The notes under the pieces are model-generated. The model saw only the letters and a program-made list of their open reading frames with translations, did not search any database and was not told where the DNA came from. 64,000 nt of DNA from a virus. Taxonomy: Duplodnaviria > Caudoviricetes. Below are positions 4,084 through 63,612 of the stretch, in pieces. A program made the position numbers and the translations under genes. The DNA lies in the IMG/VR virus record IMGVR_UViG_3300032038_000035, positions 38,743 through 102,742 of that record; one strand, 5' to 3'. Position 1 is the first letter of the stretch. Each line of letters opens with the position of its first letter.

Positions 4084-4551
4084 TTAATCGTATAGTTCGT
4101 CATCCTGAGATTGCTCATATGCATTATACATATATCTGCAATAGAATAACTTAAACTGCTCATCGGGAATATAATCCACAATAGTAGCAGCCATGAAATC
4201 TGTTATAGCATCATTAACTTTATTTAGTTTATCTTCGGTTTCTATATCAGATTCATTAATCGCCATTATTATATAATTTCTAGAAGATGCATCAACTTCT
4301 AGATTATTACCGATCATAAAAATTAATCCGGATAATGGTGATAATAATTCGGATCTACAAATAATTGCGTAGACCTTATATGAATTCTTTATTTCATACC
4401 GTTCCCTACAGTTTGCAGGTAATAATGTATTGAAATTTCTAAATATATCGCAAATGGTTATGTTTGCGGTATCCAAATCGATCTGGATTATCTCCACGTC
4501 TTTTGGAGGCGGAGATAATAGACCTTTTATAAAAGCTTTCTTGTCGTACAT
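4084..4551 (-). CDS. hypothetical protein
   Basis: 155-aa ORF with AAGGAG RBS, within an operon. Confidence 0.7.
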   Translation of the reverse strand: MYDKKAFIKGLLSPPPKDVEIIQIDLDTANITICDIFRNFNTLLPANCRERYEIKNSYKVYAIICRSELLSPLSGLIFMIGNNLEVDASSRNYIIMAINESDIETEDKLNKVNDAITDFMAATIVDYIPDEQFKLFYCRYMYNAYEQSQDDELYD

Positions 4552-4564
4552 AGATGATGCTCCT

Positions 4565-5302
4565 TTATAACAATAATCTTATTAATGGTAAGATTATATT
4601 AATATAGTTATATGAAATATCGCATGATGAATCTAATATCTCATACGAGATATCATCCATCATGACCATTATGCCATCAATGCAACATTTATACTGAGAC
4701 CTAGAGTTAAATTCTCTATACGCCTCTATTGATAACTTTTTGTTTTTATATAACTTTACCAATTCAGAAAGATATTCGTTTGGATCACCATTCTGCTCTA
4801 AATTGTCTACCAATGATTGTATCATTAGTAATATACCATCTTTATGTTGTCTATAGCTATCACCAATACCTTTTACATCTATATAGTCTGAAGCTATATA
4901 GAATTCTAGTTTATTGATATTGATAAATGCATGATAAACATTTTTTGGTATAAATTCAACTGGTCCGAATTTAGTCTGTGTAACTTTATGATTTATTACA
5001 TAGACTGCGTCTTTCTTTATCGATAAAACATCCATTAGAATATCTAGATCATTTGCTTCTAGGAATTCTTTTACGATTTTATTAAAAGATTCCTCTAGGC
5101 TCTTAGATAAATTCGGATTCTTCCTAAGAAGTAATCCGAATTTAACTTCACGATCTTTCTTTGGCAATGCGTCTAATGTATCGAGATACTCAAAATCTTT
5201 ATATAGATTGTAGTATTTCGATACATTAATATTCGCATGCTTTATATCATATTCTATAATTGATGAATTATATGACAATTGTCTATCATTTAAGTAATTC
5301 AT
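4565..5302 (-). CDS. small family-B DNA polymerase palm-like protein
   Basis: Motif A-like EYDIKHAN; motif C-like SIKKDAV; downstream VKGI. Confidence 0.5.
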   Translation of the reverse strand: MNYLNDRQLSYNSSIIEYDIKHANINVSKYYNLYKDFEYLDTLDALPKKDREVKFGLLLRKNPNLSKSLEESFNKIVKEFLEANDLDILMDVLSIKKDAVYVINHKVTQTKFGPVEFIPKNVYHAFININKLEFYIASDYIDVKGIGDSYRQHKDGILLMIQSLVDNLEQNGDPNEYLSELVKLYKNKKLSIEAYREFNSRSQYKCCIDGIMVMMDDISYEILDSSCDISYNYINIILPLIRLLL

Positions 5303-20998: not shown

Positions 20999-21087
20999 CT
21001 CCTCAATTACTTTCCATATAATATATAATTCATTTTTACTATATTTAACTTAGAGATAAAAAATATACTATTATGGAGGTAATAGAT

Positions 21088-21588
21088 ATGAAGAATAAAG
21101 AACGTTTTGATATGATGGATATTACTAGGAGAGCTATATTAACAGATAGAAAAGAAGTAATAAAGCATATCTTACATATAGTAGTTAAGGATTTTGGTCT
21201 TAGTGTCATATTTGCTTATCTTAATCCTAACTTTGGTGAATTAACTGACTATATTATTATAACTAAGAAACCTAATACTGATACTATGGTATTATTTAGT
21301 GCTATAGCATATGGTGAATGCTCTACTACTCAGTTTGACTTATTTGCATCTAAGAATAAGATAGAAGATTTTAAAAATAATCTTATTAATAATGCTACTC
21401 AATATCCGGTTAAACTATTTGATGAATCTCTTAGAGAGAAAGGTCTTTCTACTAATCCTAAGTCTGACAACTATTGGTTGGATACTAAATTAGAATCTAA
21501 TCAGAAAGTTATTAAGATATTAGAAGAACTCTTCCCTGAGTTATCTAATAAGAAGAGAATTGTATCTTCCAGACTTGGTAAGAGATAA
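21088..21588 (+). CDS. hypothetical protein
   Basis: GGAGG RBS; terminator 21588-21625. Confidence 0.7.
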   Translation: MKNKERFDMMDITRRAILTDRKEVIKHILHIVVKDFGLSVIFAYLNPNFGELTDYIIITKKPNTDTMVLFSAIAYGECSTTQFDLFASKNKIEDFKNNLINNATQYPVKLFDESLREKGLSTNPKSDNYWLDTKLESNQKVIKILEELFPELSNKKRIVSSRLGKR

Positions 21589-21622
21589 AAAATATATGGA
21601 TGGTTTAAACCATCCATATATT

Positions 21623-22045
21623 TTATGTCAATAATCCAACTATCAGTATTAACACCGTTAATACTGATATAACAGTAGTGATTATATTTATCACTGCTGT
21701 ATAGGTTCCTATCTTTAATACACTCATACTATCATCTATATAATCTTCATTAGTAGTATATGATTTATCATCGGGATGACTCTCATAAAATACATTTACC
21801 TTTTTCATAAATATACTTCTACTAATGATAGTTGATACTAATAATATTATAGCAGCTGACATCATAATTATGGTTAAATATGATGCTACTCCACTATATA
21901 TTAGTAATAATATAGATAATACTATTAACTCTGCACTAAATAGGATACCATCCTTAATACATTTATCCATTGTTAGTTTTGCATTCTTTGCGCCTTTAAT
22001 ATATGAAGATATAGATATAGTATTCATGATATTCACTTCTCTCAT
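21623..22045 (-). CDS. membrane protein
   Basis: Three hydrophobic segments. Confidence 0.6.
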   Translation of the reverse strand: MREVNIMNTISISSYIKGAKNAKLTMDKCIKDGILFSAELIVLSILLLIYSGVASYLTIIMMSAAIILLVSTIISRSIFMKKVNVFYESHPDDKSYTTNEDYIDDSMSVLKIGTYTAVINIITTVISVLTVLILIVGLLT

Positions 22046-22053
22046 ATATTTTA

Positions 22054-22470
22054 TTATATAAAAGTTCTTTTCAAATTCTCATAATCTATATCTAACTCAC
22101 ATAGTCTATCTAATTTATCTCTATAACTAATATATTCATCTATATTAGTTATATTAAATATAGGATGACTATATATAAATTGATATAGACTATATCTATT
22201 ATATATATGTGGATTATTTTCATATAGTATATTTAATATTCTATATTCTATAGTAGTCATATACATATCTTTATAAGGAGATATTAGTATATAATCTAAA
22301 TCATTATCTGTTATATAGTCTATATCTTCTATATGTATATTAGATATATTATCATCGGATATATTATTGAATATACTTCTTGTATTAATAAATTCTTTTA
22401 TATCTTCTTTACTATATGTAACTAATAATATATCTCTCTTATATAATACTCTATACTTATTATAATACAT
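22054..22470 (-). CDS. extremely AT-rich hypothetical protein
   Basis: AGAGGGGG RBS; Tyr/Ile/Asn-rich. Confidence 0.55.
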   Translation of the reverse strand: MYYNKYRVLYKRDILLVTYSKEDIKEFINTRSIFNNISDDNISNIHIEDIDYITDNDLDYILISPYKDMYMTTIEYRILNILYENNPHIYNRYSLYQFIYSHPIFNITNIDEYISYRDKLDRLCELDIDYENLKRTFI

Positions 22471-22694
22471 ATATGTATCCCCCTCTTTCTGTTTATTAAT
22501 CTTATTATATATAAACCATTATATCTTTAATATAAATCCGGATTTATAATAACTCTAAGGGGAATTTGAAAATTAGGGACCTTTGGTCCCTAATTTTCTG
22601 TAATAGTGCAGGTTAAGTTTAGAGTATTTGATAGTATTGACATAAACTGGTATTTTAAAGTATTGGTAGGTTAGACTTTGTATTATATATAGAA

Positions 22695-22978
22695 GAAAAA
22701 ATAAGTGGGAGACCCTTAGGCCTCTCATGTGTTGGTCTTATTGTCTTTTATGTATCTCTTAATTCTCTCTATTTTCTGGTCGTTTTTGGTCTCGGATGTG
22801 TTTGTGGGGCGGACCGCCCCCCTGAAAATTCGCTCCGCTCATTCTTTTTTTCTCCGACCTTCGGTCTCTAATAGGAAGCCCTACCTGACAATACGCTTCA
22901 GTTTCCCTAAACTCCGGATTTAGCCACTACCCCTTAAGGTCTGTTATCCTCACGTCTAGTCCCCCTGGCAACATCATT
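22695..22978 (-). ncRNA. candidate G-rich late ncRNA or origin-associated transcript
   Basis: AAAATAT-AACA-ATAACG-TA promoter at 22989-22978; G runs; terminal hairpin GAGGCC-TAAG-GGTCTC followed by a T tract; no ORF. Confidence 0.45.
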
Positions 22979-23029
22979 ACGTTATTGTTATATTTTTTTT
23001 TAAAAAAAAATAATTTATATTTTTATCTT

Positions 23030-23508
23030 TTTGGATAGAGATAAATCTATAAATTGGATATAGCAATATGTAACAATGCAACGTCTTGTTGAGTAATATC
23101 TAGAGAATTTAAAGTGAGCTCATGTAATGAAAGACATACAAATGAACGTATTAGATACGGGTGAGCTTAGATCGAAATCAATAAGCTCTTATGCTACAAT
23201 CATTACGGTGAACGAACTTTCAAGCTAAGCCTGACTCATAATCATGAGATTAACCTTTCTTCAGTGAACGTCTAGAAACCCCCTCCCTGGTGGTTAGCGT
23301 AGTGAGTTCAGGGGTAATCGAGTCTTTCGACAAGCCTACTTTTCATTCATAGTTTTACACCCTATTCGCATAATGTACTTTCGTACTTCTGTTTTTCACA
23401 CTATCATATGTACACCTTTTGAGCATACAAAGGACATGACTGTTCCATTCCCGCGGTCATATCCAGACAATCACCTTGCCATGTACTCGCGTACCTAGAT
23501 TCCGGTTT
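23030..23508 (-). ncRNA. candidate large structured late ncRNA (about 470 nt)
   Basis: AAAATAT-AACA-TATAGT-TA promoter at 23519-23508; hairpins GTAC-GCGA-GTAC, GTAC-GAAA-GTAC, GTC-GAAA-GAC; raised GC; no ORF of 60 aa or more. Confidence 0.6.
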
Positions 23509-23576
23509 AACTATATGTTATATTTTTATTTAAAAAAATATAGTGAATACCAAAATTTGGTATTCACTATATTATG

Positions 23577-23954
23577 CTATATAGCATAGCCTACTTTATC
23601 TATATTGTAAGTATAGACACCTTTACCTGAATAGGTAACTGATATAGCATACATATCACCAGATACAAATTCAGGTTTTAGTTTCTTAGTAGTATCTCCT
23701 GTTATGTAATTACACCAAGGAAGTATTCCTCTATTATATAAAGCTTCATCTATAGCTTCATATAATAGAGTACATTCTCTACCAGTGCCTTGGTATACTA
23801 TAGCAGTACTATGTGTGTTATAGCATTTATACTCTATGCTCTCATATAGATCTGGCCATATATGCTTCTGTTGTTCATACCATGTTTCATATAATGCTTT
23901 GGATTGACCTATAGCATTATCTACTAAAACAGAAATTTCATTAGGCTCTACCAT
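23577..23954 (-). CDS. hypothetical protein
   Basis: AGAAAGGAG RBS; terminator 23535-23573. Confidence 0.7.
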   Translation of the reverse strand: MVEPNEISVLVDNAIGQSKALYETWYEQQKHIWPDLYESIEYKCYNTHSTAIVYQGTGRECTLLYEAIDEALYNRGILPWCNYITGDTTKKLKPEFVSGDMYAISVTYSGKGVYTYNIDKVGYAI

Positions 23955-24017
23955 AATGAATCACTCCTTTCTTATATAGATATAATATACATTCCAAAAA
24001 AATATCATATTAGAGCA

Positions 24018-24215
24018 AAAAATAAATCATCAATAGATGATTTATTTTATTCATGGCTATTGCCATAGTATTCCTCCTTCCGGAGCTGTAGACGTCAGTC
24101 ACTTCGCCTCCACTATTGCAGAGACCACGCTCTCACGAGCAGGCTGACATCCATATAGGCATTACATACATCACGTGGTGTATGTAACGTTTTCCCTATA
24201 TGTCTACGTTTATTA
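24018..24215 (-). ncRNA. candidate structured early RNA (about 190 nt)
   Basis: Early promoter 24223-24255; nested stems; GCTC-GTGA-GAGC GNRA hairpin; terminator 24018-24048. Confidence 0.5.
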
Positions 24216-24222
24216 TTACTTA

Positions 24223-24255
24223 TAGAATATATAAAGCAACATACGTAATTTACGG
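24223..24255 (-). promoter_or_regulatory. putative early promoter CCGTA-N19-TATATTCTA
   Basis: Exact motif copy. Confidence 0.75.
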
Positions 24256-24267
24256 GGGGTACGTACA

Positions 24268-24301
24268 AAAAATATAGCCACCCGAAGGTGGCTATATTTT
24301 A
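24268..24301. terminator. intrinsic terminator
   Basis: ATATAGCCACC-CGAA-GGTGGCTATAT; the core recurs near 50985. Confidence 0.85.
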
Positions 24302-24308
24302 ATCGGAA

Positions 24309-24788
24309 TCAGTTATTGGGTTCAACCGAAGTGGGCATGTTAGGTAACGGGTATTCAAATTCTAGAGTCTGTGGATTGATCTGCGGATTTGGACGACTAT
24401 TTTCGAGATACCGTATAAGTTTGGACACTATATGCTTTCTTTTAATTGTTGATATCGAGCTAGTATCCACTCTCAAATATATATTGGATTCCAACTTATA
24501 AGCAGCATCCAATATTAATTCCGGTGGCACATGCCCAGATTCTGCAAGGCTAAGCAGAATCTGTTTTGCTGCAGCTGCTTCATCAACATATTCCATCACT
24601 TCACGATCTTCAAAGTATCTGAAGAAGTTGTTTATCTTATCTACTATAAGATAAACAACCGCGTCGTGTATCTCTTCTTGTCTTGCTGCTTCTTCTATAG
24701 ATTTTTTCTTGTCAAGCGCATCTTGATATATATCCATGTAATCAATTTCGAAATCTTCGTTGATATTATAATACTTATTTTTATTCAT
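24309..24788 (-). CDS. early hypothetical protein
   Basis: GGAGGT RBS. Confidence 0.7.
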   Translation of the reverse strand: MNKNKYYNINEDFEIDYMDIYQDALDKKKSIEEAARQEEIHDAVVYLIVDKINNFFRYFEDREVMEYVDEAAAAKQILLSLAESGHVPPELILDAAYKLESNIYLRVDTSSISTIKRKHIVSKLIRYLENSRPNPQINPQTLEFEYPLPNMPTSVEPNN

Positions 24789-25000
24789 GATATACCTCCA
24801 TATGATGTATCGATTAATTGCATGTGTCCAGATTCATCGAGACCCCAATGCTCTGGATCAGGTATATTTGTAACATACATTTCTCCAATCCTTATCAAAT
24901 CTTCTTTGGTCATTTCTGTAATAGGACGTAATTCGTCACCTTCTTTTGCGAAGTACTTCTTAATATTATCATCCAGCTTATCGAATTCTTCTTTTGTCAT
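24785..25000 (-). CDS. early hypothetical protein
   Basis: AGGAGGT RBS. Confidence 0.65.
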   Translation of the reverse strand: MTKEEFDKLDDNIKKYFAKEGDELRPITEMTKEDLIRIGEMYVTNIPDPEHWGLDESGHMQLIDTSYGGIS

Positions 25001-26415: not shown

Positions 26416-26599
26416 ATTTACCTCCTAATAGGTTAAAGCGGGTTTATTATCACATATATAGAATATATAATACAAATTAATGTTAATTTTACGTATCGCT
26501 CGTAATTTACGACTCATATGACGTTTTACATTACAATTTATCACTTTAACATAGTATTAAATCATATATTTTTTATAAATATGATTGGAGGTTTTCAAG

Positions 26600-29500
26600 A
26601 TGCAAGATTGTAAATTTAGTGTCAAGTGTACGGTTAGAAAGCGTAATGGAACGCAAGATTCGTTCGACATTAACAAAATTCTATCCGGCATCAATAAAAG
26701 TGCTCAACGATCGGAACCGAAATTCTCTAAGCTATCATCCGCAGAACAAGAGAGATTTCTAGCCATCCTTGAGCAATTATTTTTCACCTATGAGATAAAA
26801 GATGGAGATGTTCTTGAGACATCTTTTATTGAAAAAATAGTTGGTACAGCTCTTGGTAAATTTGACACCAACATCCAGAAGACGTATTCAGAATACAATC
26901 TGTGGAAATCTAAGTATGCAGATTCGTTCTGTAAAATAAAATCCGAAGTAGAAGAAGTATACCTCCGTGGAGATCGCTCCAATGCAAATACAAATTCAGC
27001 ATACGTTTCCACCAAACGTTGTATTGGATATAATATATTCAATAAAGAAATGTACCAGATGAATTTTCTCACTCCACAAGAACTCCGTGAATGTCGTGAT
27101 GGATTCATCTATATACATGATATGGTAGCTCGTAATGATACATTTAATTGTATGCTATTCCGTATGGCAGACGTAATGACAAACGGATTCGAAATGGGAG
27201 ACATGTGGTACACAGAACCCAAATCCCTCGACGTCGCTTTTGATGTAATGCTAGCCATTACCAAAACCGCAGCAGCACAGCAATATGGCGGATTTACGAT
27301 TCCTCAAATAGATAAGCTTCTCTCTAAATACGCTGAGAAAAGTTACAAATCTTATCTCAAAGAGTATATAGACTTTGCTCCTCCTGACACACCCGTAACA
27401 CTTGCAGCATCTCTAGCAGATATTTATGCGATGCATAAAGTCCAAAGAGACATGGAGCAAGGTTTCCAAGCAATGGAATATGACTTAAATACAATAGGTT
27501 CCTCTAGAGGAGATTATCCATTTGTGACTATAACGTTTGGATTAGATACTTCTAAATTTGGTAAGCTTGTATCTTCAACTGCATTAAAGGTAAGAGCAAA
27601 TGGAGAAGGTAAGCCTGGTTATAAGAAGATAGTAGCATTTCCTAAGTTAGTTTTTCTATATGATGAAGAACTTCATGGAGAAGATAGACCTTCTTATGAT
27701 ATATATCAAGATGCAGTAAGATGTCAAGCTAAAGCAATGTATCCGGACATGCTTTCTCTATCAGGCGAAGGATACGTGTCATCCGTCTATCAGAAATACA
27801 AAACACCTATTTCTCCTATGGGATGTCACCCCCCACTGGAGGTACTCACCTATAAACTCAATAAACAACTTTTTGTTGAGTCTATCGCTCGTCTATATGG
27901 ACGTATACGAGAGTGCATGGTTGAGAAAATTCAACCCGGTTTAGACGAACGCTATACGTACTTCGATACATCCTATATGGACCTTGAAATATACGATACT
28001 CTTCATGGTTTTGTGAAGATGAAAAAGATTATCAAAAATTATAATGACAACGATTGGTATCAAGTTGTATTAGACAATGGACGCTATATACAGGTAACTC
28101 ACGATCACCCGTTTGAAACAGAAAACCGTGGCGTGGTTCATGCATGTGATCTTATACCGGGTGAAGACAAAATTCGAGTTAATTATGAGGGCTACTCAGA
28201 AGAGACTGAAACATGCCCAGATGATCTGGCATGGTTCCTCGGATTAATGTTATGCGACGGATGTTACCAGTGTGGCGTAGTCGTATCGATAGCGGCAGAG
28301 GGCGAAGACGAAATCCAAAATATGTTCCTTGAGGTTGTTGATAGATACTACAAGCTTCCCACTAGAGTTAAACTCCAAGAAAGAGGTCCCAAGGGCACAT
28401 ATAAAGATCTCAAGATTCTCAGTGACGGCTCGGGTGCTTTGGAGAAACTCAAGAGAGACTTCGCCGATCTCTTCGGCGGCATAAACAAAAAAGATCGTCA
28501 GATCCCACCAGAGGTATTTAGGTGGAATAGATCTGCCAAGTTGGCATTCTTAGGTGGTATGATAGATGCTGATGGATATGTAGTACGAGCAGGTTCTTAT
28601 GCAAATACTGGATATACACATCTCGGCAGTACCAATAGAGAATTAGCTATACAGCAATTACTGCTTATTCAATCTCTCGGAATGCCTGCCAAAGTATATG
28701 CTAATCATTACAAGAAAGGATCTAGCAAGATACGACATTCTGTGGAATTTTATGCAACAAATGAGCTTGGCGCGTATATAACATGCGCAAAGAAGTATCA
28801 AGCAATTCCAGAAGAGCCAGGTGCGTTTACAGATACTAATCAAGTCCGTACTGTAGCTAAAGTTATGAAGATTGATGATCCTGATGAGCATTACAGCTAT
28901 GATGTAGAGACAGAATCCGGACACTTTGAAGTATCAGGAATCTATTCTCATAACTGTAGAGCATTCCTCAGTCCTTGGTTTGAAAGAGGCGGAATGACTC
29001 CAGCAGATGAAAATGACGTTCCTGTATTCGAAGGTCGAGCTAATATAGGAGCTATATCTCTTAATCTACCTATGATATATCAGAAGTCTGTAGAAGAACA
29101 CAAAGACTTCTATGAGGTATTGGATTTCTATTTAGAGATGATAAGAAATCTACATCAACGTACATATGAATATTTAGGAAAGATGAAAGCCGGATGTAAT
29201 CCTATGGTATTCTGTCAGGGTGGAGCATATGGTGGACATCTAAAACCGGATGATGTGATTGCTCCTATAATTAAATCTTGGACTGCATCATTTGGTATTA
29301 CTGCATTGAATGAATTGCAAGTACTGTATAATGGAAAGACCATAAATGAAGATGGTGAATTTGCATTAGAAGTATTAACATACATCAACAAGCAGGTTGA
29401 GAAATTCAAGAAGTTGGACGGACATTTATATGCTATATATTCTACTCCTGCTGAGGCATTATGTGGTACTCAGGTAAAACAATTCCGGAAGAAGTATGGC

Positions 29501-29914
29501 ATTATAAAAGGCGTATCTGATAAAGAGTATTTTACCAATAGTACTCACTGTCCTGTATATGCGCATATAACTCCATTCGAGAAACAAGATTCTGAGAAAC
29601 GATTCTGGGATTTGTCTAATGGTGGTCATATACAATACGTGAGATATAACGATGATAAAAACTTGGACGCATTTGATACTACGAATAGACGTGGTATGAA
29701 GATGGGCTTCTATCAAGGACACAATCTGGATAAATGCTATTGTGAAGATTGTGGATACGAACAGTTAGACATGAAGATCTGTCCTAAATGCGGATCAAAA
29801 AATATAACTGAAATAAATAGATTGTGTGGTTATCTTGGCTATAGCAAGATAAAAGGAGACACTAGAATGAACGATGCTAAATTAGCTGAGATTGCTGATA
29901 GAGTATCGATGTAA
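26600..29914 (+). CDS. nrdD: anaerobic (class III) ribonucleoside-triphosphate reductase with intein
   Basis: N-terminal ATP cone (VRKRNG); IYIHD; PMG/CR catalytic loop; YSTPAE; Zn site CEDC/CPKC; glycyl-radical RLCGYLG. Confidence 0.95.
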   Translation: MQDCKFSVKCTVRKRNGTQDSFDINKILSGINKSAQRSEPKFSKLSSAEQERFLAILEQLFFTYEIKDGDVLETSFIEKIVGTALGKFDTNIQKTYSEYNLWKSKYADSFCKIKSEVEEVYLRGDRSNANTNSAYVSTKRCIGYNIFNKEMYQMNFLTPQELRECRDGFIYIHDMVARNDTFNCMLFRMADVMTNGFEMGDMWYTEPKSLDVAFDVMLAITKTAAAQQYGGFTIPQIDKLLSKYAEKSYKSYLKEYIDFAPPDTPVTLAASLADIYAMHKVQRDMEQGFQAMEYDLNTIGSSRGDYPFVTITFGLDTSKFGKLVSSTALKVRANGEGKPGYKKIVAFPKLVFLYDEELHGEDRPSYDIYQDAVRCQAKAMYPDMLSLSGEGYVSSVYQKYKTPISPMGCHPPLEVLTYKLNKQLFVESIARLYGRIRECMVEKIQPGLDERYTYFDTSYMDLEIYDTLHGFVKMKKIIKNYNDNDWYQVVLDNGRYIQVTHDHPFETENRGVVHACDLIPGEDKIRVNYEGYSEETETCPDDLAWFLGLMLCDGCYQCGVVVSIAAEGEDEIQNMFLEVVDRYYKLPTRVKLQERGPKGTYKDLKILSDGSGALEKLKRDFADLFGGINKKDRQIPPEVFRWNRSAKLAFLGGMIDADGYVVRAGSYANTGYTHLGSTNRELAIQQLLLIQSLGMPAKVYANHYKKGSSKIRHSVEFYATNELGAYITCAKKYQAIPEEPGAFTDTNQVRTVAKVMKIDDPDEHYSYDVETESGHFEVSGIYSHNCRAFLSPWFERGGMTPADENDVPVFEGRANIGAISLNLPMIYQKSVEEHKDFYEVLDFYLEMIRNLHQRTYEYLGKMKAGCNPMVFCQGGAYGGHLKPDDVIAPIIKSWTASFGITALNELQVLYNGKTINEDGEFALEVLTYINKQVEKFKKLDGHLYAIYSTPAEALCGTQVKQFRKKYGIIKGVSDKEYFTNSTHCPVYAHITPFEKQDSEKRFWDLSNGGHIQYVRYNDDKNLDAFDTTNRRGMKMGFYQGHNLDKCYCEDCGYEQLDMKICPKCGSKNITEINRLCGYLGYSKIKGDTRMNDAKLAEIADRVSM
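27824..28954 (+). mobile_element. intein (377 aa) with LAGLIDADG homing endonuclease
   Basis: Starts at C after PMG; block B VTHDHPF; LGLMLCDG and FLGGMIDADG; ends YDVET...SHN followed by the extein Cys. Confidence 0.92.
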
Positions 29915-30396: not shown

Positions 30397-30430
30397 TAGT
30401 GGCTCCTTTCAAAAAATATTAGTTTGATTA

Positions 30431-30808
30431 TAAATACAGCTGTGCCGTATAAGCACAGTTGTATTTATTTTGGGCGGACCACGAATAATCTCCAGCATGA
30501 GATCATCTCCTTTACAGAAATCCACTTTTGATAAAGTCGTCACGAGTTTATCTCATACCAGATCAATACCCCTAGGGCAAGTATATCACTGATATTTTTT
30601 GTGAGATGCTCGGCGTATCCAATCGTTATTATCAAGCTTGTGGTTGCTTCCAGATCGTTGGATAACAATTGGAATGCAATATAGAACGATCGTCATATAT
30701 TGCCACGCTCTTTTATCCATGAGAGCTCATGCAGTAATATGATAACCAGTTTATTTGATCAGGATAAACTAATGATATCTAACTATGTTTTGTCATAGCG
30801 TTTATTAC
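30431..30808 (-). ncRNA. candidate structured early RNA or long leader (about 370 nt)
   Basis: Early promoter 30815-30847; series of hairpins; no long ORF; hairpin at 30431-30471. Confidence 0.45.
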
Positions 30809-30814
30809 CATTAT

Positions 30815-30847
30815 TAGAATATATAAATTAGAGTATATCGAATACGG
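30815..30847 (-). promoter_or_regulatory. putative early promoter
   Basis: CCGTA-N19-TATATTCTA. Confidence 0.75.
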
Positions 30848-30922
30848 ACTATGTTTTCAGAGGCTCTTAGAAAATTAACAAAAAAATAAAGGCATCTTTA
30901 TGATGCCTTTATTTTTCTTTTG

Positions 30923-31093
30923 TCATTTTTCCACCTCCTTATCTGCATCATTGCCTAATGATGCAAACTTATATTCATACTCATCCTCGATGAGTCTGCG
31001 CGAGAGCTGAAAGTCCTCTACACAAGCTGCGTTCTCGCGAGCCTCTCTTATTGCCTTGTATAAATCCTGAGCGAGCTTTTCCTTAAGAGTCAT
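30923..31093 (-). CDS. early 56-aa protein MTLKEKLAQDLYKAIRE... (not in ORF track)
   Basis: AAGGAGGT RBS; own early promoter; terminator about 30880-30916. Confidence 0.7.
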   Translation of the reverse strand: MTLKEKLAQDLYKAIREARENAACVEDFQLSRRLIEDEYEYKFASLGNDADKEVEK

Positions 31094-31152
31094 AAGATTA
31101 CCTCCTTGAATTTGCCCCGATGCTGGGGCATTGTTTCCTTTATTATTACCTA

Positions 31153-31185
31153 TAGAATATATAACAAAAAATACGGAATATACGG
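31153..31185 (-). promoter_or_regulatory. putative early promoter
   Basis: CCGTA-N19-TATATTCTA. Confidence 0.75.
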
Positions 31186-31225
31186 ATAAAAAAATAGGGT
31201 ACCTGACGGTACCCTATTTCATCAT

Positions 31226-36960: not shown

Positions 36961-37134
36961 ACTTGTACCTCCTGTATGAAAAAGGGTTTATTATCTCGTA
37001 TATATAATATATAATCAAAAAGTATGTCTATTGTACGGAATTTGTGGATATTTTTATGAGCCCTGGGATGGTTTTTATTTATATCGACCAAAATAATTAT
37101 ATAACCAAGTTTATTAATTTAAGGAGGGCACAGA

Positions 37135-38487: not shown

Positions 38488-38996
38488 ATTATCATGATAT
38501 AAAATATATGAATACTTTAAATGGTCCCGGTTTTAGGACTGTATTATTCGTATCCGGATGTAACCATCACTGTAACGGATGTCATAATCCTGAAACATGG
38601 CCTTTAGATAGTGGTATACCATTTTTACAACGTGATAAAACTGATATTATTGCTTCTTTAAGGGATCCATACGTTAATGGATTGACGATTACCGGTGGTG
38701 ATCCATTACATCCGAGTAATTGCACGGGCGTACAAGAATTATGTCAATTAATCAGAAATGATGATGTTACAGCTTGTAAATCTATATGGGTATACACAGG
38801 TTATATATACGAAGAATTAGATGATTCTATAAAATCTAATATATTACCACTTATAGATGTACTCGTAGATGGTCCATTTATATTGGAAAAACGAGATACT
38901 AAGTTTCTATACGCTGGTTCCACAAATCAGCGTCTTATAGATATAAAAGCTTCACTTGAATCAGGTGAAGTTAAATTATGGAAGTCAAAATTTTAA
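38484..38996 (+). CDS. nrdG: anaerobic RNR activating enzyme (radical SAM)
   Basis: NGPGFRTVLFVSGCNHHCNGCHN; TGGDP; DVLVDGPF; GSTNQR. Confidence 0.95.
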   Translation: MNYHDIKYMNTLNGPGFRTVLFVSGCNHHCNGCHNPETWPLDSGIPFLQRDKTDIIASLRDPYVNGLTITGGDPLHPSNCTGVQELCQLIRNDDVTACKSIWVYTGYIYEELDDSIKSNILPLIDVLVDGPFILEKRDTKFLYAGSTNQRLIDIKASLESGEVKLWKSKF

Positions 38997-51277: not shown

Positions 51278-51331
51278 AGTATACCAGCCTTTCTGCCCGA
51301 TTTTGGGCAACTTAATTTATTTTATTACTTA

Positions 51332-51364
51332 TAGAATATATAACGAAAATAATCTGATATACGG
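51332..51364 (-). promoter_or_regulatory. putative early promoter
   Basis: CCGTA-N19-TATATTCTA. Confidence 0.75.
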
Positions 51365-62128: not shown

Positions 62129-62244
62129 AATAGGTTACTCTCCTTTATAATAATTTATGGTAATGTATGTATGCGTATTTTGCTATACATGCATTTTAAA
62201 AAACAACTTTGTAATATAATTTTAGTTTAAGGAGTGAGATAATA

Positions 62245-63612
62245 GTGAACGAACTTGCAATATTTAATGATTCGTATTTCGATATGCATGATAACTATGA
62301 CTACGAATTATATTCTGCAAACGAAGGTTTAAGTGATGTCGGCGATGCGATATCTGGGTTTTTTGCAAAAATCGGAGAAAGTATAAAGAAGCTCAGCGAA
62401 AAGAATGACATTCGTGTTTCAGATTATGTTAAATGTGGATATTCTAAAGGCGAAGCTGTTAAATTAGTAAAGAAAACCGCAAGCTTTTTAAATCAGAATG
62501 GACTCGTTAAGAACTATATAGATGTGAATGCAATAAATGAAAACTCTGTAATTTCTTATCATAAGGATTTAAATTCGGATGGTAAGAAATTGTATAAAGC
62601 CGCAGTTGATACGTTTAAGCAATGCTATAAGAACAAGGGCTCTGAAATTATACCTACATATATGCAAAGAGCTAGGACTCATTTAGACAACGCAGAATCA
62701 AAAGAAAAAACTGTCGTATTTATTATCAATTTAATCATTTCAATTGTTATTGCATTATTTAACATTGGCGCGGTAAGTACAGCGGTCGATTGGATACCGG
62801 TTCTTGGTCCAATGATATCCGGTGGTGCCGCAGTTGCTATTATAATTGCTGGTCTATTTGGTTTAGGATTAGTTACACTAATCGCGAACTATATTATCGG
62901 TAGTAAATATAATAAGAAACGTGATAAGGTTATGATGGCTACAAACTATCGTAGCACTGAATCCACTGATATATTTGATACTGATCACTTTGAAGATGTC
63001 GCTATGGAAGCCGACGTTGGATTAAAGCGTACTGTTGCTGGATTTTTAGGTTCATTACCGGCATTGATATATGAAGCAATTCACGATAGTCATATAGACC
63101 AGTCTGTTGTTGTAAGTGTTAATGCTATAATGGCTAATGGATTCAGTAGAGACAAAGCTAAGAAGATGGCTAGACAGACTATTGAATTCTTTAAGAAAAA
63201 AGGATTCTTAAGATATGCAGTATCTCCGGATACCGAAGTATTAATGTACAACGATCTTAATGATTATGGTAAACAATTTGTACGTGGCTATTATGATGCG
63301 ATAGATGATATACAACCTGCAGATATGCAGAAGATAATCAGAGCAAAACAGAGCAACCATAAATCTACCACAGGCGGCACTATATTTGCTTGGATACATT
63401 ACATATTATCAGCATTCGCGTTTGGTTGGAACGTTGGTACAGCTGGTTTGGCTGGACTAATCTTCTCATCAGTTGACTTTGGTATAAGCGCTGTTTCATT
63501 GACAAAAATTGAAAGTGAAAGAGCGAATAGAAAATTCTTTGATAATACGTATATCGATAGTTCAGATGTAAGAGAATCTGTAGACGTGTTTGATGAGGAT
63601 TACTTCATTTAA
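62245..63612 (+). CDS. putative processed head polyprotein with two homologous membrane-hairpin domains
   Basis: Acidic propeptides ending ANE and AME; duplicated domain; hydrophobic hairpins; late AACA-ACTTTG-TA promoter. Confidence 0.65.
   Translation: MNELAIFNDSYFDMHDNYDYELYSANEGLSDVGDAISGFFAKIGESIKKLSEKNDIRVSDYVKCGYSKGEAVKLVKKTASFLNQNGLVKNYIDVNAINENSVISYHKDLNSDGKKLYKAAVDTFKQCYKNKGSEIIPTYMQRARTHLDNAESKEKTVVFIINLIISIVIALFNIGAVSTAVDWIPVLGPMISGGAAVAIIIAGLFGLGLVTLIANYIIGSKYNKKRDKVMMATNYRSTESTDIFDTDHFEDVAMEADVGLKRTVAGFLGSLPALIYEAIHDSHIDQSVVVSVNAIMANGFSRDKAKKMARQTIEFFKKKGFLRYAVSPDTEVLMYNDLNDYGKQFVRGYYDAIDDIQPADMQKIIRAKQSNHKSTTGGTIFAWIHYILSAFAFGWNVGTAGLAGLIFSSVDFGISAVSLTKIESERANRKFFDNTYIDSSDVRESVDVFDEDYFI

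Follow-up and report, generated by a model that had tools for sequence, protein, structure and literature searches.

The stretch of DNA analysed here (the window; 64,000 nt, positions 38743–102742 of the 102.7-kb IMG/VR contig IMGVR_UViG_3300032038_000035, for which a completeness of 41% is estimated) contains on its minus strand a non-coding locus composed of two GC-rich units: a structured RNA of ~507 nt devoid of any conserved open reading frame (ORF), termed RNA-A (23002–23508), and an adjoining partner unit termed RNA-B (22695–22978). Conservation, covariation and metatranscriptome contigs show that this is a real RNA. It represents a new RNA family outside Rfam; the general kind to which it belongs, that of the phage-borne structured base-pairing non-coding RNAs (ncRNAs), is known. 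The interpretation favoured here, held with a confidence slightly above even, is that the locus specifies a bipartite base-pairing RNA in which RNA-A pairs with RNA-B. In its short forms, found in related phages, the layout comes down to hairpins, a single-stranded linker and a terminator, with a partner site adjoining, and this makes a base-pairing RNA the likeliest mechanism. A first-pass annotation, made from the sequence alone, had proposed a dedicated late ncRNA at this site, possibly of a new class or with a part in virion assembly. A dedicated minus-strand ncRNA gene is indeed supported, but the RNA does not stand alone: it proved to be the 5′ half of a bipartite locus, its linker pairing with the adjacent RNA-B. 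None of the results speaks for the virion-assembly role.

The 125-aa protein encoded upstream of RNA-A has three relatives, of 94, 88 and 82% identity, on contigs L007, L006 and L008. RNA-A was found to be 99.8% identical to its counterpart in L007 (one gap) and 98.8% identical to that in L006 (4 mismatches and 2 gaps in 487 nt), while the DNA of the 125-aa gene showed 93.1% identity to L007 (26 mismatches) and 89.7% to L006 (39 mismatches in 378 nt). The identity of RNA-A is therefore above that of the adjoining coding gene, which indicates a much stronger constraint on the non-coding stretch. Contig L008 ends ~260 nt into the RNA; its sequence blocks are kept, the first GNRA hairpin is exchanged for a longer hairpin, and at the hairpin 23386–23375 there is a 39-nt self-foldable insertion, with both sides of the stem UGUAUGC/GUGUACA changed. 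More distant relatives were reached through the 138-aa protein encoded downstream (22470–22054, same strand as the RNA locus), the relatives of which (134–138 aa) go down to ~34% identity. The DNA of six such lineages was compared (L019, L021, L023, L024, L025 and L026); together with the window clade they make up the comparison set of seven lineages. In all six, an ORF-free gap of ~250–1370 nt lies directly upstream of the homologue of the 138-aa gene, and the gap is syntenic in all the relatives found via either flanking protein. In each lineage it starts with a T-run followed by a box of the form ATAACA-N6-TAAAC.

Across the family the order of the elements is constant. The first part consists of a helix P1 (4 bp), a junction AAU, the hairpins P2 (5 bp) and P3 (5 bp), a linker of 13–18 nt, and a hairpin followed by a U-run; the second part has an interior that is GC-rich and variable, then the complement of the linker and, directly behind that, the motif C-R-GGGGG-N3-G-N2-CCG. 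In RNA-A, helix P1 (23252–23507) is made up of AACC (23507–23504) and GGUU (23255–23252), which enclose 23503–23256; P2 is the hairpin CUCAU-GAUU-AUGAG (23235–23248) and P3 the hairpin CAGGC-UUA-GCUUG (23221–23233). The linker, UGAAAGUUCGUUC (23210–23222), is the seed, or 5′ strand, of a long-range helix P4 recognized by a duplex scan and by covariation. As judged from the aligned sequences, the conserved core is small, consisting of 23255–23210 plus 23507–23504, that is, the three hairpins P1–P3 and the 13-nt linker. What differs most between lineages is the P1 loop, which measures 4 nt in L024, L025 and L026, ~33 nt in L023, ~70–100 nt in L021 and L019, and 248 nt in the window; in the short forms L024, L025 and L026 the whole first part is only ~100–120 nt long. 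The P1 loop of the window contains, in order, a junction, the hairpin GUAC-GCGA-GUAC (23483–23494), the first of the expansion, a conserved UGGCAAGG, a variable domain of ~200 nt (23265–23474), and a conserved CUGAAGA. In a constrained fold the variable domain is closed by a 12-bp stem, GUGAUUGUCUGGA/UUCUAGACGUUCAC. At the site of the GCGA hairpin, L008, L021 and L019 have a longer, different hairpin; the pairing has thus been retained and the sequence swapped. The ~200-nt domain is replaced by an 18-nt hairpin in L021 and by ~38 nt in L019, which identifies the most ornate part of the RNA as a lineage-specific expansion. The three minus-strand GNRA hairpins on which the first-pass annotation had centred (GTAC-GCGA-GTAC at 23494–23483, GTAC-GAAA-GTAC at 23386–23375 and GTC-GAAA-GAC at 23331–23322) are all present, the two GAAA hairpins sitting within the variable domain, and so are the stems ATGAC/GTCAT and GAGCTTA/TAAGCTC; the hairpin region is, however, not part of the conserved core, and the expansion is absent in five of the seven lineages, with 4–100 nt standing in its place.

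Compensatory double changes were found in 12 of the 23 core pairs (two of four in P1, two of five in P2, one of five in P3 and seven of nine in P4), with few non-pairs. P1 covaries, reading AUCC/GGAU in L026 and AACU/AGUU in L019; P2 reads CCUAU/AUAGG in L024–L026, which amounts to two compensatory pairs; and P3 was paired in 100% of the cells over the seven lineages, its position 2 being A-U, G-C or G-U. In the MAFFT alignment of P2–P3, 95.7% of the cells were paired, against 17–40% when the partners were slid, and none of 500 shuffles attained the observed pairing or covariation score. A further domain follows the seed (23063–23206), where RNAalifold placed GUAAUGA...UCAUUAC around GAGCUUA-UU-GAU-UUCG-AUC-UAAGCUC; applied to the window, L006 and L021, it gave 33 pairs, nine of them changed on both sides. 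This domain is common to the window clade and L021 only, and is missing in the short forms. Structure is thus kept by compensatory changes across the seven lineages, in line with the folded RNA envisaged in the first-pass annotation. That the locus has no function, being a decayed gene or a spacer transcribed by chance, is highly improbable. The single sequence carries no thermodynamic signal and large parts of it differ between lineages, as such an explanation would have it, but the conservation is far above that of the neighbouring coding gene, compensatory changes occur in four helices, the promoter and the terminator are conserved, and no frame-consistent protein similarity exists.

To locate the partner of the linker, the 18 nt following P3 were compared, independently of homology, with everything downstream in each lineage. 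The segment just 5′ of the G-run came out as the best duplex partner in seven lineages out of seven, at −17 to −27 kcal/mol, compared with −8 to −13 kcal/mol for the second best. Four sequence versions of P4 occur (GAAAGUUCG, GUAAGAUCG, GUAUUUUAG and GAAUCUAAA), each with a fitting partner. The window has GAGCGAAUUUUCA (22823–22835) as the 3′ strand of P4, a 13-bp complement of the seed at 23222–23210; when the whole 102.7-kb contig was searched on both strands, 22835–22823 was the top non-self partner of the seed, its own antisense aside. Directly after P4 comes the conserved G-rich motif (22806–22824), in which C, GGGG, G and CCG are invariant in the alignment. RNA-B, to which both belong, has a GC content of 0.46–0.47 and a terminator hairpin (22724–22709) with a U-run, ending at about 22695; its 3′ domain is conserved in all lineages. 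The covarying pairing between the linker and RNA-B indicates that RNA-A and RNA-B are two halves of one RNA system. In addition, the start of the G-rich motif, C-(A/G)-GG, repeats the 5′ strand of P3, with the same A or G as P3 in seven of seven lineages; P4 could therefore extend into P3 by strand exchange, and such an exchange between P3 and the G-rich motif might possibly work as a switch.

Most lineages have a recurrent tandem pentamer, (R/U)AGCG-(R/U)AGCG, in the second half of their locus. In the short forms it stands immediately behind the internal U-run; the window copy (22829–22840) overlaps the 3′ strand of P4. Compared with shuffled sequences, L019, L023, L025 and the window contain the pentamer in excess. 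The second-best partner of the seed on the contig (−19.7 kcal/mol; the next, −16.8 kcal/mol) is at 62234–62263 on the plus strand. This segment takes in the beginning of a 455-aa gene (62245–63612), from the Shine-Dalgarno sequence through the GTG start to the first codons. The gene has an AACA-N6-TA box of its own (62202–62213), and its start region is a possible candidate for an mRNA target of the RNA-A seed.

RNA-A is preceded by the promoter-like box AAAAATAT-AACA-TATAGT-TA (23508–23527), with its AACA at 23519–23516 and the predicted +1 at A 23508. Transcription of RNA-A would most likely start at this box, which is of the type recognized by the AR9 non-virion RNA polymerase (nvRNAP), an enzyme that requires template-strand uracil. 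Late promoters of Bacillus phage AR9 have the consensus AACA-(6N)-TA/G, the last base being the start site (PMC5312081), and the RNA-A box matches it in motif and spacing. Such an AACA-N6-TA box before the RNA is kept in seven of seven lineages, with a variable N6. Both the box AACA-TATAGT-TA at 23519–23508 and its likeness to the AR9 type, as given in the first-pass annotation, have therefore stood up; the further claim, that transcription is late and due to an nvRNAP, has the motif as its basis and is retained as a reasonable inference. Over the contig, the last base of AACA-N6-T(A/G) was intergenic at 24 of 100 sites, a 2-fold enrichment given that intergenic DNA makes up 11%, and 11 of these 24 sites lay in sense at most 100 nt upstream of a start codon. 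The extended form of the motif, comprising a T-run, an A-run and TATAACA, was found only at the two promoters of the RNA locus. Metatranscriptome contigs reach 23494 and 23496, that is, 12–14 nt inside the predicted start of RNA-A, at the palindrome. On its upstream side the unit is limited by the intrinsic terminator of the 125-aa gene (23537–23573, minus strand; a 17-bp hairpin with a T-run, kept in L006–L008).

At its other end, RNA-A would most likely stop at an AT-rich hairpin (23055–23012, −8.7 kcal/mol) followed by U9 (23010–23002), taken as its presumed terminator (23002–23055); a simple terminator scan passes over this hairpin, as it has too few G-C pairs. The stretch annotated on the first pass as ORF-free, and ~470 nt long, is indeed without ORFs, but with the terminator hairpin and U9 included the unit comes to 507 nt (23508–23002). 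Directly after the U9 there is an A9, and then a second AACA-N6-TA box. This presumed promoter of RNA-B, AACA-ATAACG-TA behind T9-A9 (22978–22989, +1 at 22978), is near-identical in L021 and is missing in L019 and in L023–L026. With the second promoter present only in the window and L021, and with the RNA-A terminator in front of it, the two halves look like separate transcription units in the window clade.

Expression was assessed by comparing Logan contigs from four rumen metatranscriptome libraries, belonging to two studies, with the region 21000–25000. Four RNA-library contigs fell on RNA-A (23070–23494, of 426 nt; 23071–23322; 23334–23496; and 23093–23340), while the flanking genes in this region had no high-identity contig in the four libraries. 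RNA-A is thus the sole part of the 4-kb region to be recovered in the four metatranscriptomes, which makes it probably abundant; the view that it is an abundant, discrete RNA receives moderate support from these contigs. Their ends coincide with the GCGA palindrome or come shortly ahead of the terminator hairpin, spots where assemblies often break. A variant contig of run X17 differs inside the variable domain, with 182 letters against 117 in the window.

Whether the two halves are made separately is also the point on which the first of the rival explanations turns. The locus might yield a single transcript of ~810 nt, from 23508 to about 22695, in which the internal hairpin and U-run would be structural or leaky and P4 would be intramolecular, closing a large central domain; P4 might even be a processing stalk of the kind that flanks rRNAs. 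This is possible, although doubtful. In keeping with it, L019 and L023–L026 have one promoter for both halves, the minimum-free-energy folds of the short forms have P4 as a long internal helix, and the X20 contig bridges 23176–22961 across the U9 and the second box. Against it, a hairpin with a U-run follows the seed in every lineage, the second box is almost the same in the window and L021 though the flanking proteins are only ~56–58% identical, and the contigs of three RNA runs end within RNA-A, none of them lying over RNA-B.

Several results weigh against the bipartite interpretation itself. In the five of seven lineages that have no second promoter, RNA-B would be produced by read-through, and pairing would have to take place in cis or after processing. 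The X20 contig (22961–23176) crosses the proposed terminator of RNA-A, which means either read-through or DNA, and beyond its edge RNA-B had no contig in the four RNA runs, although this is not evidence of absence; pairing in trans is to this extent uncertain, and a read-through form acting in cis is possible. The contigs carry no information on strand, ends or level, and DNA may have been carried over into the RNA libraries. The short promoter motif is not enriched window-wide (38 matches, 69 being expected), and inside genes its frequency is chance-like. The folding energy of the single sequence was no better than that of shuffles (z = +0.46 for the minus strand and +0.05 for the plus strand). 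Lastly, the covariation comes from seven independent lineages, the short ones hand-aligned for P1 and P4, and is scored by compensatory pairs and, for P2–P3, against shuffles.

In the window phage the P1 loop has grown to a branched domain of ~250 nt with GNRA hairpins, and a second structured domain stands after the linker. The linker pairs with RNA-B at 22835–22823, beside the conserved G-rich motif. Short-form relatives have both halves behind a single promoter, and in the window and L021 these are split by the presumed terminator and second promoter. Under the bipartite interpretation, the active species would be the A:B duplex, formed in trans in the window phage; the G-rich segment could displace the 5′ strand of P3 within the duplex, and RNA-A would probably be made in excess. 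A regulatory role, a scaffolding role and that of a processing substrate are all candidates for what the duplex does downstream. A bolder proposal, put forward only tentatively, is that of a naturally split RNA. An ancestral RNA of ~340 nt would have been cut in two by an inserted terminator and second promoter, and its halves would reassemble in trans, via the covarying helix of 13–18 bp and the swap between the G-segment and P3, into a functional core needed late in infection, be it as a scaffold for a ribonucleoprotein, as a switch or as a unit resembling a ribozyme; RNA-A might in addition have mRNA targets, such as the gene start at 62245.

The RNA always lies directly upstream of the 134–138-aa gene (22470–22054 in the window), on the same strand, and its promoter-proximal structure followed by a terminator has the layout of an attenuator. 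It might therefore be a leader acting in cis on that gene and controlling read-through of the internal terminators, with P3 and the G-rich motif providing for alternative pairings. This explanation is unlikely: the loci were located by means of that very gene, so that the linkage is partly built into the search; in the window, the start codon is set apart from RNA-B by two terminators and an AT-rich stretch of ~225 nt; RNA-A is present in RNA libraries without its downstream gene; and no known riboswitch or leader family was matched. The product of the gene has nothing above the Pfam threshold (Trans_reg_C is sub-threshold, E = 0.006) and no PHROG family, and its AlphaFold model (pLDDT 88) had no fold match in the PDB at E up to 0.001.

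The DNA that separates the RNA locus from the downstream gene includes in L019 (4380–4990) and L021 (4560–4990) several hundred bases that are extremely AT-rich and full of repeats, variations on TATAATAT and CTAATATA; the AT-rich stretch of the window is much shorter (22471–22695). Such long, repetitive AT-rich DNA after the locus, seen in L019 (~4380–4990), in L021 and in the short forms, would fit an RNA-primed replication origin or another DNA-level element in which a strong promoter sends a structured transcript into an AT-rich unwinding region, for which the origins of T4 and ColE1 are the RNA-primed cases for comparison. There is little to recommend this explanation, since no turn in GC skew occurs at the locus, the transcripts of the window end at terminators ahead of the AT-rich stretch, no replication protein adjacent to the locus was recognized with Pfam or PHROGs, and the covarying P4 and core hairpins call for a function at the RNA level. 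The rivals thus rank, from the more to the less probable, as a single RNA folded in cis, a leader for the gene downstream and an origin primed by RNA.

No known RNA family accounted for the locus. When the window and the six related loci were searched with the Rfam 15 models (cmscan), nothing was found at gathering scores, and at E values up to 10 only chance-level rows were returned for 22400–23700 and for 480–1000 of L025; ROOL, GOLLD, raiA, OLE and HEARO gave no row in the window or the related loci, so that the candidate families listed in the first-pass annotation are discounted. ARAGORN predicted no tRNA or tmRNA gene in the window or in two more stretches of the contig. The absence of a tmRNA, RNase P or group I/II intron identity noted on the first pass accordingly agrees with the empty ARAGORN and Rfam results. 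For tmRNA, standard or two-piece, the 3′ domain also shows no T-loop-like hairpin by eye. For RNase P RNA, whose own P4 strands are GAGGAAAGUCC ... ACAGAA/GGCUUA, the G-rich motif, GGGGGAAAGAGCCG in L025, is only loosely like the 5′ strand, and neither a matching 3′ strand or topology nor an Rfam row was found. Group I/II introns were rejected because the unit is bounded by a terminator and a promoter and is not inside a gene, with no Rfam rows, and the GAGCUUA hairpin differs from group II domain V in that it bulges on the 5′ side and is capped by UUCG. The fold is branched, unlike the rod of ~180–200 nt with a central bubble of 6S RNA, for which there was no Rfam row either. A hammerhead look-alike, CUGAAGA...GAAA, was discarded since L019 reads GUAA where GAAA should be invariant, and none of the Rfam models matched. 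A CsrA-type sponge was dismissed for RNA-B, as GGA motifs are enriched only in L021 and not in the other six lineages, and a type I toxin because no small hydrophobic ORF is conserved. As regards protein coding, the longest stop-to-stop frame has 70 aa, and the tblastn matches were short and fell in several frames on the same bases; stop-codon recoding was rejected too, a 3.5-kb stretch at the start of the contig being an ORF that runs off the contig end without in-frame stops.

A covariance model, R1, was built from the core P2/P3 and the conserved junctions (51 positions). It found one copy per locus, at 40.6–67.5 bits, in the window, L006, L007, L019, L021 and L023–L026, and no further match in 189 kb of collected DNA or in the 102.7-kb contig. 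In AR9, BpSp, LPJP1 and Staphylococcus phage SA1 its scores did not exceed 20.8 bits, the best lying inside a baseplate gene. Comparison of 22500–23700 with 50,697 phage records by blastn produced no match, and no relative came up when IMG/VR, possibly without the record of the window itself, was scanned with four DNA patterns, an alignment of the 138-aa family, the RNA polymerase subunit and the 125-aa protein; two pattern scans of GTDB genome contigs yielded no copy, and a metagenome scan with an 18-mer gave 10 chance loci and no homologue, the 18-mer having been a poor choice, as it was taken from the lineage-specific domain. As far as was searched, the family appears to be restricted to one small clade of ruminant-gut phages, all uncultured, comprising about seven lineages.

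The locus occupies a gap of 1106 nt (22471–23576) without any ORF of at least 60 aa, which holds the two GC-rich units, RNA-A and RNA-B. The GC content is 0.395–0.415 across 23100–23499, compared with 0.27–0.335 in the flanks and 0.34 for the whole contig, which confirms the excess over the flanks noted in the first-pass annotation. The small flanking proteins have no family match above threshold in Pfam or PHROGs. The window encodes a phage-type multisubunit RNA polymerase beta-like subunit, the only such subunit gene seen in it, which is 24–29% identical to the subunits of Yersinia phage phiR1-37, Bacillus phage BpSp, Listeria phage LPJP1 and a Staphylococcus jumbo phage, and the contig also codes for large virion proteins and an anaerobic ribonucleotide reductase. 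DNA that is nearly identical was seen in gut metagenomes of bovine, goat and sheep origin (20 runs among those listed, from 12 studies). The source is read as a ruminant-gut jumbo phage, uncultured, with AR9-like promoter motifs. Strong AGGAGG ribosome-binding sites precede the genes of the contig, and from these the host is probably a Firmicute.

Elsewhere in the window, a second promoter-like motif, TATATATT(C/A)TATA, usually followed by (G)TAATAATAAAC, was observed on the minus strand at 24221–24233, 26457–26469, 31151–31163, 37001–37013 and 51330–51342. With at most one mismatch, TATATATT(C/A)TATA had 16 matches where 6.1 were expected, and none of 100 shuffles had as many. The motif resembles the early promoter consensus of AR9, AAATATATATTAT-(6N)-G (PMC5312081). 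One such early-like box is followed by a GC-rich unit of ~180 nt (24030–24210, minus strand) that ends in a terminator, AAATAAATCATC...GATGATTTATTTTTT, and contains AGGAGG and an 18-codon ORF (MAIAMNKINHLLMIYFLL); it may be either a small-peptide gene or another ncRNA. Another, TTTATATATTCTAATAATGGTAATAAACG, introduces ~340 nt without an ORF on the minus strand (30430–30830), with a hairpin near 30465–30430, a further candidate ncRNA that lies within an 829-nt ORF-free gap (30397–31225). On the plus strand, at 26585–29914, the NrdD-like anaerobic ribonucleotide reductase is predicted to have 1109 aa, far above the usual length, and its relative in L021 (1–1062) has a LAGLIDADG_3 domain between two NRDD segments; an intein or a homing-endonuclease insertion is likely.

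Jumbo phages with RNA polymerases of their own have been studied chiefly via their proteins, and to our knowledge dedicated ncRNA genes have hardly been described in them. The locus offers a small, clear core with lineage-specific expansions and a partner RNA bound by a covarying helix; it presents a concrete pairing, of 13 nt against 13 nt, and a natural series in which one-piece forms lead on to two-piece ones. Should the pairing be functional, it would provide a way into RNA-based regulation or assembly in AR9-like rumen phages. ORF-free gaps in genomes of this kind deserve to be annotated as genes.

The system can be set beside several that are known. With the late units of AR9 it shares the promoter motif, a multisubunit RNA polymerase beta-like subunit and an early-like second motif; it differs in that the R1 core was not found in AR9, BpSp, LPJP1 or SA1, and in that the polymerase subunit is only ~24–29% identical to those of the cultured relatives. 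GOLLD and ROOL are large ornate RNAs of Firmicutes and their phages. Like GOLLD (RF01998) and ROOL (RF03087), the RNA described here is a large, multi-branched, phage-borne ncRNA with its own transcription signals and a probable Firmicute host, but it gave no cmscan match to them, has no tRNA neighbourhood, and is a two-part system with a core of ~50 nt plus a pairing segment. The occurrence of one-unit and split forms and the presence of a long covarying helix recall the two-piece tmRNAs and the crRNA:tracrRNA pairs, a likeness that is architectural only, since a tRNA-like end, a tag frame and repeats are all lacking and, according to Pfam and PHROGs, no nuclease gene lies nearby. Trans-acting base-pairing small RNAs differ in that the partner here is an adjoining non-coding unit rather than a known mRNA, and in that the RNA of the window has ~507 nt. 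The resemblance to them lies in the short forms, which consist of three hairpins, a linker of 13–18 nt and a hairpin with a U-run within ~100–120 nt, and in the pairing of the linker with a specific, covarying partner site.

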